Positions 20,403 to 28,330 are shown, counted from the first letter of the stretch. The stretch is DNA of 64,000 nt from Dictyostelium discoideum (GCA_000004695.1 CM000150.2:608001-672000), one strand, 5' to 3'. The notes: generated by a model from the sequence alone, not told the origin. Program-made: numbers and translations.

Positions 20403-21811
20403 TTAACCAAATAATTTTGACTTTGAAACATTAACCAAACCTAATCTTGGAGTTGCTAAAGTTGGATAGGAAGATGGAGGTGGAGTTTGTAAAGCAATGG
20501 ATAAAGAAGATTCCAAATCTTCAAAGAAAGAATAAGTTGTAATTTTCTTATCCCAACCACCGACCCATAATTGTGGTTTACCTTGAGGAGAGAGAGCAAA
20601 AGCTAAGGAAGAGATAGCATCGGTATGTTTTTTCTTTAATGATTGAACCATTCTAAAGTTTTGCTTTGAATCCCAAACTAAAATGGTACTATCATAACAA
20701 GCACCAATGATATAGGTATCTAAAATTAAAAGTGATAAAACTCTTGATGCTAATCCATCCAATCTTTTCTTTATGATACCACTTTCATCGAATATACAAA
20801 TCACTCTTTCACTACAAGTTATGACGAATCTATCCATTCTTTTAATTGTATGAATTAAAGCACCACCATGACTTTCATGATGAGCAATCGGTGCCATTGA
20901 TGGATACTCGAGAATGAATATCATACCTCTATCAGTACCCAACCAAACTCTACTTGCACCAACTGCACCAACACTTGAATGATGAATTAGAATGGTTGTG
21001 ATTTGAGCATCCAATGTCTTTACATTCATTAGTTTCTTTGTTTTCAATTTTGATTTACTAATTACTTTGATACAAGATGTTTTCTCTTTACAATTGGACC
21101 AAACTGATTCTCCTTCATCTACCAATGACGTAATGAAATTGGTTTTAATGGTTTTCAATAGCTTGAATGATTTCGCTTCAAAACAAAGTATACCCTCATT
21201 GTAGAATGCCCAAATATGTGAATCCTCTTCAATGGTTGGACAAATTGGTTGATAACTACTACCTAAACTACCACCACTACCACCACTACTATAGGGTGAT
21301 GGGGTTGAACCACTTGCTAATGAACTTAAATTTAAACTACTTCTACTTGTTAATGTAACACTACTTGATGATGGTGTACACTTTCTAATTAAACTAAAAC
21401 CAAGTATACGACTTGAATCTGCAATTCTAGAGGTTGATACGATTTGTCTAGTTGCTGAATTAATAACACAAACTGAACCATCACCCATACCACACCAAAC
21501 AAATACTTCATTCTTATTATTTTGAACTGGATATAGTGAGTGAATAGTTGATGTGAAAGCAACTGGTAATACCATTTCATATCTTAATATCTTAAAACTA
21601 CCTGCTGATGATAATGATCCATCACCACTTTCATAAACACTTGAAGATCCTGAATTTGATTGTGAATTTGAATGTGGTGTTGATGATCCATTTTGTTGAT
21701 GTTGATTACCTCCACTACCAATACCACCATTTGCAATTGCAGTTATAATTGGAATTACAAAATTATTACCACTACTACCACTATGTGATACACCACTACT
21801 ACCACCACTAC

Positions 21812-21851
<40 letters not shown>

Positions 21852-24800
21852 TATATTATTATTTAAATTATTATTATTATGACTTAAACTTGATTGAATT
21901 GAACTATTACTACCATTACTATTATGATTATTTAATAAATTATTTAATTGTAAATTTGAAATTGATAATTTTTGTTGATGTTGTGATAGTGGTGGAGTTG
22001 AAGTTGATGGTTGTTGTTGTTGGGCGGCTTGTGATTGTGGAGGTGGTTGTTGTTGTTGTTGATTTATTTGATCTTCATTAATTGGTGGTAATTGTTTACA
22101 AAATTCTAATCTTTCATTTAGATTAAAAGTTTTTTGCATTGTTGATAAACGTTCTAGAATTGAATTGAAAGATGGTCTTTTCTTTGGATCACCACTCCAA
22201 CAATCTGTGATTAATTGTTTCATATCAGGTGGACATTCATTTGGAATGGTTGGACGTAAACCTTTCATAATTTTATCTTCAATGATTGAATTCCATTTCA
22301 ATTGATCAACATACTCTTCGAATGGTAAATCACGAGTGATTATCTCCCAAAGTACAATTGCATAGGAATAGATATCAATCTTTTCCGTATATTGACCATC
22401 ACCCATACACTCTGGTGCTAACCATCTCCAATTCCAAACTTTTCTACCTTTAACCTCTTTACCAATTGGTTTAATCGATAGACCGAAATCACCAACTTTA
22501 GCAACCAAATTGTCCATTGATGAACCACCCAATAAAATATTTGCACTCTTTAGATCTCTATGAACGATCATTGGTTTACAACTGTGAAGGAAATTCATAC
22601 CTTTAGCAACATCGATAGCCAATTTCAATACAGTACCCCATGAGAAAGTTTCAGCTGTATTTCTAATGAATTTTGCTAAATCACCATATTGAAGTAACTC
22701 TGTAACCAAACAGAATGGACTTAACGATACACCCATCAATGAAACTGTATTTGCATGACGAAGTTCACCAGTTATATGTGCTTCATTTCTAAATTCTCTA
22801 TACTTTTCTGTGGTATTGGCATGACCATCATCGAAATTCAATACTTTGATTGCCACTTCACTACCATTCCAAATACCACGATAAACATTCGCATAGGAAC
22901 CACTACCTAATTGTGGACCAAATTTCAAAGTTTCATAAGGAATTACAGAGAATTTATTACTATTGAATGTTACTTCAAATGCCAATGAATAGATATCGAT
23001 TTTAGTTGTTCTTGGTGAAAGTGTTTCATGAATGATACCACCTAGTTGTGCTTTACAAATTACATTGGTTTGACCTAGTGATGCTTGATTCTCTAAATAA
23101 TCTAAAGTATACATTGTTGGATTTTCTATATGTTGATTGGTACAATGTGTACATGCTACACGTACATTACTTAAACGACCAGGGAAATACCAAAGAATGA
23201 AAGATGACACCAAATCAACGATACTCTTTAGCAATTGTTGTTGTTTATTATCGTCACGAATTGAAACTTTTAGAATGAAATTTACTGAATCGTACTCTAT
23301 CAAACATTGAGAATCAAATGATTTAGCTGCACCACCCCATAATTGACCTGCTGGTTGAAGTACCATACCATTTTGCCAAATACATAATGGATCATAATGT
23401 TGAAGTACACGTACTGATAAACGAGAGAAGAAACCCTTTGGAAGGAATTGAAATTCATAGATTCTTAAATATTCATTATTGGCATGAGCAGTTGGTGACC
23501 AAAGGTCCCTCATAACCATTGGTCTTTCACCACCAAATAGTTGAGGAATAATCACTGAACTATCTTCAGCTGAAATGTAAACCAATTCAAACTTCTCTAA
23601 AAGGAATAACAATGAACTTGTCTTACAATGTGGGAATAATGATGCCCAGGCTTGAGTGATTTGATCGACCACTGTCATACCATTTTGAGTTTTCAATGCC
23701 AACACTGCAGAGATTAATTTTGACATCCACATTGAATCTAAAAATACCAATTCATTTAATAATTGATCATTGGCTTCATAACGATAGTAAAGCACCTCAC
23801 CAATTTCATAAAGATATTTAATTGCAGCTTCACTATCTCTTGGTTCAATACTAAATATTCTTGCTATATTCTTTATCAATGGTATTGAACTCAATGGCAT
23901 TTTATTTCTAGCATAAGCCTCCTTTACTGATTCTTGACATTGACTCTTTAGAATTGAATAGCTTAATGGAATTTTATAATGATATTGTTTCATCATTGCA
24001 TTATTTTGTAAACGTTGTACCAATTGTTTAATTTGTTTTGAATTCTTTAAAGAGATATTTGAATAACTATTAATATTATTGAATCTAAACAAACGATGAT
24101 ATTCTGATTTAAAACTAACAAATTTCTTCTCATCAATTGAAGTATTTGATAAACCAACCAAATAAACCGTAGAACCTTGTGCTTTAGTTTGAATAATCTC
24201 TAACCAATAATTAATCATTGTTGAATTAATATTCATTGGATTATATGTGATAATGAATAATGATTGTGGTGATATGAATAATGGATGAACCACTTGATAT
24301 TGTTCATTACCTGATATATAAAAGGTTTTCAATGTAATTTGGTCGATTTCCGCTGAACCAACTACCAACTCACTCGTATGTAATACACCGTCGATTGATG
24401 AAACTTCATTTACATTACTTGTTGACGACGGTATGAAATTACTACCAAAGAAACCACCGCCACGACCACCACCAGATGATAACAAACCATTTTGTGAATA
24501 ATTCTTTCTAAGTGAATTATAAAATGATAATTTCTCTTGACTCTCTTCACCTACTATACAAAGTTTAACTTGATTATTCATACAATAATCATTTTTAGAT
24601 GTACAAATGTATGTATTATCTTGAGCTATCACAGTTGATAATAATGGACGTGATAATGGTGTTGATAGTAATTGATTTGGATTACTCAAAACATCATTCA
24701 ATGCCATTGTACTACCAGAATAAGTTGTATTAACATTTTGTGAAGTATTTATAAATGATTGTAATCTATCTACTGAACTATTTGAACCTGCCCAAATTAC

Positions 24801-26421: not shown

Positions 26422-26483
<62 letters not shown>

Positions 26484-28330
26484 TATTGATATTGAACCAT
26501 TACCACGCGCAGTTAATGGTGGATTAGTTGGTGATGAATTTGTTGATGAATTTCTTAATGTATAAAATCCACTTCTAGATGAAATTATTGGACTTGATGT
26601 ATTACTATTACAATTTTGATTATTATTATTATTATTATTTTGATTAATATTTTGATTATTATTTTGATTATTATTTAATAAATTAAATGAAATTTTAAAA
26701 TTAATTAACATTTCTTTAAAAATTGAAAATAAATAAATTTGACGGTCAGCACGTGCAAATGAAATACAAGTATTTAAATCTTTTGCTCGTTTAAATGATT
26801 CTTCCAATTCAGAGGATTCACTACGAATATTATTTATGAAATTGTTACAAGCTTCTTCTTTTGAAGGTAATGGAATTGATGGTGGTATAACTTGATTATT
26901 CAATGTTGGATTCAATGCGGCAGTCATAGATATAGAATGAGTGTTTCTAAAGATCATACCTTTTATAAAGTGCATAATTTGCTCTTGTGTAGTTACACTA
27001 CCACGACGTGATTGGTCCCTATCGAATGCAATATCCAATACTACTTTTGAAATCTCGATATAGGTTTTCGTAAAGAATTTACCATTGGCCATATTAGGTG
27101 GTGATTTCAAATTTGCCAAGATTGGACAAATCAATTTGGTGAAAAAGATTTTCTTCATTAATTCAAAACAAAAATCGGGTGAAAACACTTGATGAATATC
27201 TAAATATAACATTTCAAATAACTGAAATACTGTTGGTGGAAACTTTTCAATTGATCTAAAAATTGTATTTATAATTGATATTGAAAATTGAGAAATTTGA
27301 TCTTTCATATGTTCTACATTTATATTTTGTATAATTGTTTGTGAAATTATTGGTGTATTATTATTACTATTATTATTATTTGTTGGTGTTGTTGTTGATG
27401 ATGATGATGTTATTATTGTTGGTGTTGAACTACCAATGGTTGGTGATGAAATTGGTGTAAGATTATAACTACCACCGCCACCATTTATTTGTGGAACACT
27501 TCCATTAATAAATGTTGATGGTGAATTATTTTTTAACATGTTTGGTGAATTATTATTTAAATCTATTGAATCTATATTGTTATTATTACTACTATTATTA
27601 TAATTACTTCCCATTATAATTCTAGGTGATCCTATAGCAGGTGAAGTTTTTAATGCAGTTACATTTGGTGTTGAATTTGCTGATAGTACATTATTATTAT
27701 TTTTATTTGCTTCTTTATTCGCTAAAATTACTATTTGCTCTTGAATCATTGGTGTAAAATTTAAAACTTGTGATATCATTGTTTTTTCCATTAATCCACC
27801 TAATTGTGATTTTAAATAAATTGCCGCCATTCTATTAATTAAACTAAAAAAAAAAAAAAATAGGAAAAATGAATAAGTAATTTTTTTTTTTTTTTTTGTT
27901 ATTATTTAATAACTATAACTTACTTATAAAAACTTTGATAATTAAGTGGATTACTTTCATCAGTTGAACATTGTTTAGCTTGATCAATAGTTTGTTTTAT
28001 AAATAATCTTAATAATTCTAAAAAAGAATCATCTAAGATAACTATTAATGAATTAATTAGATCTGTTATTTTTTGTGTTGATGATGATCTACAGAAATTA
28101 TCTAATATTGAACAAAAGAATTCAACATCTTGTAATAATAATATATTCTTGAATAATAAAGTTTGAGATGATGATCCATCTCCTAGATTTGGTACCATAC
28201 CTCTCAATGGGGTAGTGATTTCTCTTTGATTGTAATTATTGCTATTACTACCACCACCAACACTATTATTTGTTGGTCTTGGTGGTGCTATACTATTACC
28301 ACTTGATGAAAGTGATGAATATCCATCCAT
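20403..28330 (-). CDS. Roco-like multidomain protein (about 2,615 aa): N-terminal RasGAP-like region, two ubiquitin/RA-like folds, degenerate Roc GTPase, COR, Ser/Thr/Tyr (TKL-like) protein kinase, C-terminal WD40-like repeats; exons 27924..28330 and 20403..27843
   Basis: Exon 1 (MDGYSSLSS...NYQSFY) ends at a perfect GTAAGT donor. The 80-nt intron 27844..27923 ends ttttag and joins in phase 2, giving ..FYNLINRMAAIYLK. The kinase (about 22100..22930) has GSGSYANVYRG, VAIK, HRDLKSANILL, DFGLS and APE motifs. Upstream are a COR-like block (EAAIKYLYEIGEVLYY..) and a Roc-like block with a degraded P-loop (VKLCIVGEESQEKLSF). The N-terminus has FTKLICPILANLKSP, resembling the RasGAP FLR..PAI..P motif. 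The C-terminus has WD-like repeats (VFVWCGMGDGSVCV, ILVWDSKQN). Confidence 0.85.

Follow-up and report, generated by a model that had tools for sequence, protein, structure and literature searches.

Roco kinases such as human LRRK2 and LRRK1, or Roco4 and Pats1 of Dictyostelium discoideum, have in common a Roc domain followed by COR, a protein kinase and a β-propeller, an order that is also found in Roco7, a paralogue of LRRK2, the Parkinson's-disease kinase, that has a name but has been little studied. The gene encoding this protein, roco7, lies on the minus strand of the 64,000-nucleotide stretch of D. discoideum DNA analysed here (GCA_000004695.1 CM000150.2:608001-672000, hereafter the window, from whose first nucleotide all positions are counted). 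Compared with the canonical Rocos, Roco7 lacks leucine-rich repeats (LRR), its P-loop reads GEESQEKL instead of GxxxxGKT and its G3 motif YISG instead of DFAG, whereas its N-terminus is predicted to hold a RasGAP fold and a ubiquitin-like fold in place of the ARM, ANK and LRR regions found in the others. As judged from its aligned motifs, the Roc-like domain is most likely a nucleotide-free pseudo-GTPase that has lost the residues binding phosphate and Mg. Similarly, the GAP-like module appears to have neither the arginine finger nor the Arg of the FLR motif and looks catalytically dead.

Pseudo-GTPase domains such as pG1 and pG2 of p190RhoGAP or CENP-M, together with the LRRK2 mutants K1347A and T1348N, in which GTP binding is lost, form the comparison set for the Roc-like domain of Roco7. 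With the former it seems to share a GTPase fold in which the phosphate and Mg residues of G1 and G3 are lost and the domain is nevertheless conserved; it differs from other pseudo-GTPase domains by its position in a Roc-COR tandem. For the N-terminal module, comparison is offered by IQGAPs, which have a Thr at the position of the finger, YYR for FLR and no GAP activity (PMC12871552). Roco7's GAP-related domain (GRD) likewise presents a hydroxyl residue at the finger position, with FLR changed as well, a pattern that is catalytically inactive in IQGAPs (PMC12871552). However, Roco7 has none of the CH, IQ and RGCt domains of IQGAP1/2 or of the D. discoideum proteins DGAP1 and GAPA, no specific sequence kinship with them is detectable, and its GRD is fused to a Roco kinase. 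The cytoplasmic region of plexins also combines a RasGAP fold with a ubiquitin-like domain, which binds Rho GTPases. In plexins, however, this domain is inserted in a GAP domain that has kept its arginine fingers, whereas in Roco7 it follows a GAP fold whose finger seems to be missing.

The Roc-like domain is recognized by profiles only in part. Pfam Roc matches residues 1296-1366 (profile positions 47-115 of 119) with 24.9 bits for a cut-off of 27, and Pfam Ras is also below its cut-off with 17.5 bits; the Acytostelium orthologue, with 29.3 bits, passes that of Roc. By phmmer, the region extending from about residue 1303 through COR matches LRRK2 (E 7.6e-17), LRRK1, the RocCOR structure of the C. 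tepidum Roco and Rab6. The register of the G motifs was taken from a MAFFT alignment of Roco7 with canonical Roc domains, in which the LRRK2 row is corroborated by the phmmer alignment only downstream of the P-loop. This register is confirmed by the Tieghemostelium orthologue and by orthologue P0003, which are both devoid of the Gly-rich insert described below and in which the Roc profile aligns from its position 1. Of the canonical G-xxxx-G-K-T of G1, Roco7 has retained the first Gly as well as the Lys (K1240), whereas the second Gly is replaced by Glu and the Ser/Thr by Leu. A first-pass annotation of the window had thus rightly described a degenerate P-loop, which aligns with canonical Roc domains as GEESQEKL, but it took the conserved Gly, Lys and Ser/Thr to be all replaced, which holds for the second Gly and the Ser/Thr and not for the first Gly and the Lys. 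In G3 the Asp of DxxG is a Tyr; in G4 the canonical THLD corresponds, after a three-residue insert, to T1370-S-I-D1373, with the Asp retained; and G5, canonically SC[KT], is partly retained as S-L-K.

These changes are shared by the orthologues. Over eight of them the P-loop reads G-[ED]-E-x-x-[ED]-K-[LMTYI], with Glu or Asp at the second Gly in 8/8, a hydrophobic residue at the Ser/Thr position in 7/8 (K-T occurs in Synstelium only) and an invariant K1240, and the Asp of DxxG is Tyr in seven and Leu in one, the motif being [YL]-x-[SN]-G. An intact P-loop elsewhere in the protein was not found, as a search for the Walker A motif [AG]xxxxGK[ST] over the whole length of eight dictyostelid orthologues returned no match. 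The Gly-rich insert immediately follows the helix of the degenerate P-loop and occupies the switch-I position (residues 1253-1290, about 24450..24560, minus strand); it is limited to group-4 Dictyostelium species and bears the phosphosite S1259.

At the N-terminus, the RasGAP relationship escapes direct searches: Pfam RasGAP (PF00616) gives nothing at E <= 1 for Roco7 itself, a profile of five orthologues found no RasGAP among PDB sequences (E <= 10), and a word-indexed profile search returned solely the exon-1 open reading frame (ORF) and no RasGAP. In two orthologues, those of Tieghemostelium and P0003, the Pfam family appears below threshold (E 6.3e-4 and 1.3e-3; 20.1 and 19.1 bits for a cut-off of 28.3). 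An AlphaFold2 (AF2) model was obtained for the N-terminus of the D. firmibasis protein (residues 1-495), from an input alignment that included exon 2 of the window; in its two folded halves this protein is 98% and 89% identical to that of the window. The model is all-helical, the helices having predicted local distance difference test (pLDDT) values of 70-90, and the top 19 Foldseek matches are all RasGAP folds, with E-values of just 0.03-2.6. Finally, hhalign aligned eight orthologues to p120GAP and NF1 over 239 columns (85.6% probability, E 5.6e-6). The structural matches, the profile alignment and the sub-threshold Pfam signals of the orthologues together argue that the RasGAP helical fold predicted for the N-terminus of Roco7 is real.

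Of the residues expected of a working GAP, several seem to be replaced. In the confident part of the hhalign alignment, FFTKLICPILAN pairs with VFLRLICPAILN of p120GAP, and in the resulting counterpart of the FLRxxxPAxxxP motif (as defined in PMC12871552), FTKLICPILANL, Lys372 takes the place of the Arg, Ile that of the Ala and Leu that of the last Pro. Lys372, which makes FTK of FLR, is invariant in the eight orthologues. The Lys of the K949/K1423 type is kept, since EISK402VV pairs with LVAKSV of p120GAP, and Lys402 is invariant as well. The column of the arginine finger (R789 in p120GAP) is occupied by Ser in all seven orthologues having the region; hhalign is less confident in this N-terminal part, where the register is supported by the four helices that precede the finger loop in p120GAP as well as in the model. 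No Arg or Lys occurs in the finger loop of Roco7 (residues 122-139). The conserved N-terminal LF[KR]N was considered as a TLFR finger motif and ruled out, as hhalign pairs it with EFKE, which lies in the initial "extra" helix of p120GAP. The RasGAP-like segment announced by the first-pass annotation therefore stands as a fold, without the arginine finger (Ser133) and the FLR Arg (Lys372), and its FTK motif, which had been placed in the N-terminal exon, is encoded in exon 2.

A ubiquitin-like unit follows the GAP-like module. The AF2 model of residues 645-1075 is poor (mean pLDDT 43) and usable only in its first domain, where residues about 686-790 reach a pLDDT of 70-79 with the strand order of ubiquitin, and a β-grasp fold is predicted on this basis. 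Residues 791-1075 may hold one or two more β-grasp units. No similarity was detected by hhalign among the three putative ubiquitin-like units, which lends no support to a tandem of homologous RA domains, and Pfam RA gives no signal in Roco7 at E <= 1. Thus, of the two RA/ubiquitin-like folds initially proposed, one ubiquitin-like fold is retained, the second being of low confidence and neither showing an RA-specific signal. Visual inspection suggests ubiquitin-like units at the N-termini of a Pats1-like Roco of D. firmibasis (P0006, residues 1-95) and of another amoebozoan Roco (P0017, residues 1-75), and such modules may be common ahead of amoebozoan Roco kinases.

The remainder of the protein is that of a Roco-family, LRRK2-like kinase of the TKL type. 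Directly after the Roc-like domain, COR-A and COR-B are recognized by Pfam with 58.5 bits (cut-off 35.3) and 67.4 bits (cut-off 27), and the kinase domain, also above its cut-off, has kept the Gly-rich loop GSGSYANV, VAIK, HRDLKSAN, DFG and APE. Judging from its motifs, it is the only module of Roco7 that looks enzymatically competent. The propeller is weaker: Pfam Beta-prop_LRRK2 scores 25.4 bits for a cut-off of 26.9, with residues 2389-2462 as best stretch, and other propeller families are weak too. Clear COR and kinase domains with WD-like repeats behind them had been noted at the first reading of the sequence, as had the absence of obvious LRR: no LRR family matches the protein in Pfam at E <= 1, and the pattern LxxLxLxxNx[LIVF] has no match in Roco7 or in its orthologues P0001-P0004, whereas canonical Rocos present 2-4. 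The order of Roco7 is therefore a RasGAP-fold domain, at least one ubiquitin-like domain, a Roc-like domain, COR-A/B, kinase and β-propeller. In the linker between kinase and propeller, an antisense ORF of 110 amino acids initiated by TTG (21749..22081, plus strand) coincides with a strong local change of GC skew within a low-complexity coding stretch; it is most likely spurious.

The Roc-like domain, the GRD and the other folded domains are under strong purifying selection, as measured between roco7 and the D. firmibasis gene by the ratio of nonsynonymous to synonymous substitution rates (dN/dS, Nei-Gojobori method; see the table). The seemingly dead modules are constrained as COR is, which indicates that they are working parts and not products of decay. 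Orthologues of identical architecture were found in at least seven other dictyostelids. A HMMER search with the middle region against 1.84 billion cluster representatives retrieved six proteins only, all of them long dictyostelid Roco7-like proteins and including those of D. purpureum, Synstelium, Heterostelium, Acytostelium and Tieghemostelium.

Taken jointly, these features are best read as those of a kinase controlled in trans, a reading that we consider probable, with some reserve. The nucleotide-free Roc-like domain would form with COR a fixed scaffold, structural or for dimerisation, that serves the kinase without acting as a switch. The N-terminal pseudo-GAP and ubiquitin-like module would, in the manner of IQGAPs and plexins, dock an external small GTPase of the Ras, Rap or Rac type, and the localisation or activity of the kinase would be set in trans, with no intrinsic GTP cycle of Roc. 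After cyclic AMP (cAMP), Roco7 joins the cytoskeletal fraction during the first actin phase (PMC3971484), and it is a core chemotaxis phosphoprotein (PMC6397043), both of which fit the docking of an external GTPase. A wider proposal, held here only tentatively, is that the Roc switch has been out of action throughout the history of Dictyostelia groups 2-4, control having passed to an IQGAP-like pseudo-GAP and ubiquitin-like module that would read an external Ras/Rap/Rac-type GTPase in chemoattractant-induced actin remodelling.

Several points weigh against control in trans of a kinase with a dead Roc and a dead GAP. The mapping of the finger falls in a low-confidence stretch of the profile alignment and in a loop where the model has a pLDDT below 50, two orthologues have a Lys at position +2 from Ser133, and R140, which is R/K in all orthologues, stands seven residues downstream of it. 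What was modelled is the D. firmibasis orthologue, whose folded parts are 89-98% identical, and not the spliced sequence of the window, and the underlying alignment has only five sequences. Moreover, a roco7 null mutant was reported without developmental defect. In the Roc-like domain, the P-loop Lys is invariant, the Asp of the G4 type persists (as TSID in Roco7, as TSTD in the Acytostelium orthologue and as TMDD in P0003), and so does a G5-like S-[LC]-[KR], and Synstelium still has K-T in its P-loop. These retained residues leave some room for an atypical binding of guanine nucleotide, possibly Mg-independent and non-hydrolysing, that would make of Roc a G domain that is always "on" or always "off", and the constraint on the domain (dN/dS 0.058) agrees with it. 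We nevertheless regard this as unlikely, as the second Gly of the P-loop, its Ser/Thr and the Asp of DxxG are replaced in all or nearly all orthologues, and the three acidic side chains within the Roco7 P-loop would repel phosphates. Moreover, a single equivalent change in Ras (at G15, S17 or D57; e.g., G15A or S17N) or in LRRK2 (T1348N) already cripples or abolishes the binding of Mg-nucleotide.

Still less probable is that the N-terminal module works as an active GAP with another basic residue for finger, acting in cis on its own Roc or in trans on a GTPase of the Ras family. The fold is genuine, Lys402 and the basic Lys372 are invariant, R140 is close to the finger loop, and roco7 is listed under "regulation of GTPase activity" in a Gene Ontology table, which suggests that a RasGAP-type signature was already assigned to it electronically; on the contrary, it is absent from "GTPase activator activity" in the same table (PMC6397043). 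Moreover, the Ser at the finger position is invariant within a loop without any conserved basic residue, and the change of FLR to FTK, along with that of the PA...P part, resembles the pattern of the inactive IQGAPs (PMC12871552). The presumed substrate in cis would also be a Roc without the residues needed for holding GTP. A self-contained circuit in which a GAP acts on its own Roc, as imagined in the first-pass annotation, is therefore unlikely, both modules looking catalytically dead by their finger Ser and their degenerate G1 and G3. As for decay in a gene that is losing its function, or an artefact of the gene model, the null mutant reported without developmental defect and the long low-complexity tracts interrupting the protein could be invoked in its favor, but the likelihood is practically negligible given a dN/dS of 0.03-0.11 in the folded domains, an architecture kept across the dictyostelids, the intact kinase motifs, and a protein that was detected with its phosphosites by mass spectrometry.

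The locus is the already annotated roco7 (DDB_G0267472), which belongs to the 11 Roco kinases annotated in D. discoideum. Two ORFs on the minus strand (20403..27830 and 27920..28330) are joined by a GT..AG intron into a region of 7928 nucleotides (nt), in exact agreement with the published roco7 (chromosome 1, 628403 to 636330, 7928 nt; PMC6397043 supplement). If both run in one orientation, the window would span 608001-672000 of D. discoideum chromosome 1. The 13-mer published around the phosphosite at residue 1259, QNGLLSSGGGRGG, corresponds to residues 1253-1265 of the window translation (PMC6397043 supplement), and the match of both length and phosphosite numbering identifies the gene as D. 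discoideum roco7 in its standard gene model. The N-terminal exon joined by an 80-nt intron, as first proposed, was exact in coordinates and gene structure, and orthologues agree with it: the junction ...QSFYN/LINRMAA... is found again in three of them, and an intron of 79 nt occupies the identical position in D. firmibasis. The two strings quoted from the protein at that stage are also present (VKLCIVGEESQEKLSF at residues 1228-1243 and FTKLICPILANLKSP at residues 370-384). The closest proteins in databases are those of D. firmibasis (81% identity), then D. purpureum (59%). The GC content, 25-36% in coding parts and 7-20% in the surroundings, is typical of Dictyostelium. In a public read-set assembly, the exon-1 ORF read into the intron (27920..28330, minus strand) appears as a separate "protein" of 136 amino acids (P0029, 100% identical) on a contig of 1759 nt, which is a gene-calling artefact.

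The architecture had first been called unusual; it is not an unrecognized one, as roco7 is named and annotated, and both the incompleteness of its Roc/COR and the lack of LRR have been described (PMC7003747). The gain is thus a refinement of a known protein and no new kind of system. In searchable papers, no mention was found of DDB_G0267472 or of a Roco with a pseudo-GTPase, nor any discussion of the residues of the G motifs, the proof of the GRD fold, the missing finger, the ubiquitin-like unit or the selection data. If its Roc is truly nucleotide-free, Roco7 would be a natural control in the long debate on how the GTP cycle of Roc governs the activity of Roco kinases, and a ready-made test of whether the RocCOR scaffold supports kinase regulation without a nucleotide cycle, which is a matter of debate for LRRK2. 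A RasGAP fold apparently without finger followed by a ubiquitin-like fold would point to an input by small GTPase binding in trans, which fits the reported quick arrival of the protein at the cytoskeleton upon cAMP stimulation.

Table. Features of roco7 in the window. Residue numbers refer to the spliced protein; dN/dS is between roco7 and the D. firmibasis gene.
Feature	Position	Strand	dN/dS	Evidence
roco7 (DDB_G0267472) coding region, ATG to stop, 2615 amino acids	20403..28330	-		ORFs and splice sites
Exon 1, residues 1-135 and two bases of codon 136	27924..28330	-		ORF and splice site; junction conserved in orthologues
Intron, 80 nt, AT-rich, GTAAGT...TTTTAG	27844..27923	-		Splice sites; D. 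firmibasis counterpart
Exon 2, residues 136-2615 and stop codon	20403..27843	-		ORF and splice site
Predicted RasGAP-fold domain (GRD), residues about 56-522; spans the intron and contains a low-complexity insert	26685..28165	-	0.029 (N-terminal half); 0.109 (C-terminal half)	
Low-complexity S/T/N-rich insert in the GRD, residues 176-305	27336..27725	-	0.94	pLDDT below 50
Ser133, aligned with arginine finger R789 of p120GAP	27932..27934	-		hhalign (low confidence here) and orthologue alignment
FFTKLICPILANLKSP, residues 369-384, putative counterpart of RasGAP FLRxxxPAxxxP, Arg replaced by Lys372	27099..27146	-		hhalign to p120GAP VFLRLICPAILN
Predicted ubiquitin-like β-grasp domain (first ubiquitin-like unit), residues about 686-790	25881..26195	-	0.059	Predicted structure
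Residues 791-1075, conserved but of uncertain fold, with a low-complexity insert	25026..25880	-	0.19	Low-confidence AF2 model; dN/dS
Roc-like domain, probable pseudo-GTPase, residues 1225-1425	23976..24578	-	0.058	Pfam below cut-off, phmmer, alignment
Degenerate P-loop, G1234-EESQ-E1239-K1240-L1241	24528..24551	-		Alignment with canonical Roc domains
Degenerate G3 motif, Y1311-I-S-G1314 instead of DxxG	24309..24320	-		Alignment to LRRK2 DFAG and canonical Rocs
COR-A (residues 1441-1572) and COR-B (residues 1593-1736)	23043..23930	-	0.054	Pfam
Protein kinase domain, residues 1776-2035	22146..22925	-	0.022	Pfam E 1.9e-58; all catalytic motifs
C-terminal β-propeller-like region, residues about 2226-2585	20496..21575	-	0.110	Pfam near threshold
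Low-complexity linkers			0.43-0.94	

Several other ORFs are present in the window. The largest, 37119..50171 on the plus strand, is uninterrupted over 4350 amino acids and has only weak Pfam matches to AAA and dynein-type AAA families (residues 1272-1303 and 1714-1861); it would encode a very large ATPase-like protein. On the minus strand, Pfam matches 30115..32745 to ChAPs/TPR, 3485..5188 to FNIP repeats and 16602..17738 to mitochondrial carriers, and on the plus strand 1755..3416 to the ABC-2 membrane family. A mitochondrial-carrier gene is also found near the roco7 orthologue of D. firmibasis (locus L001), on its opposite side.

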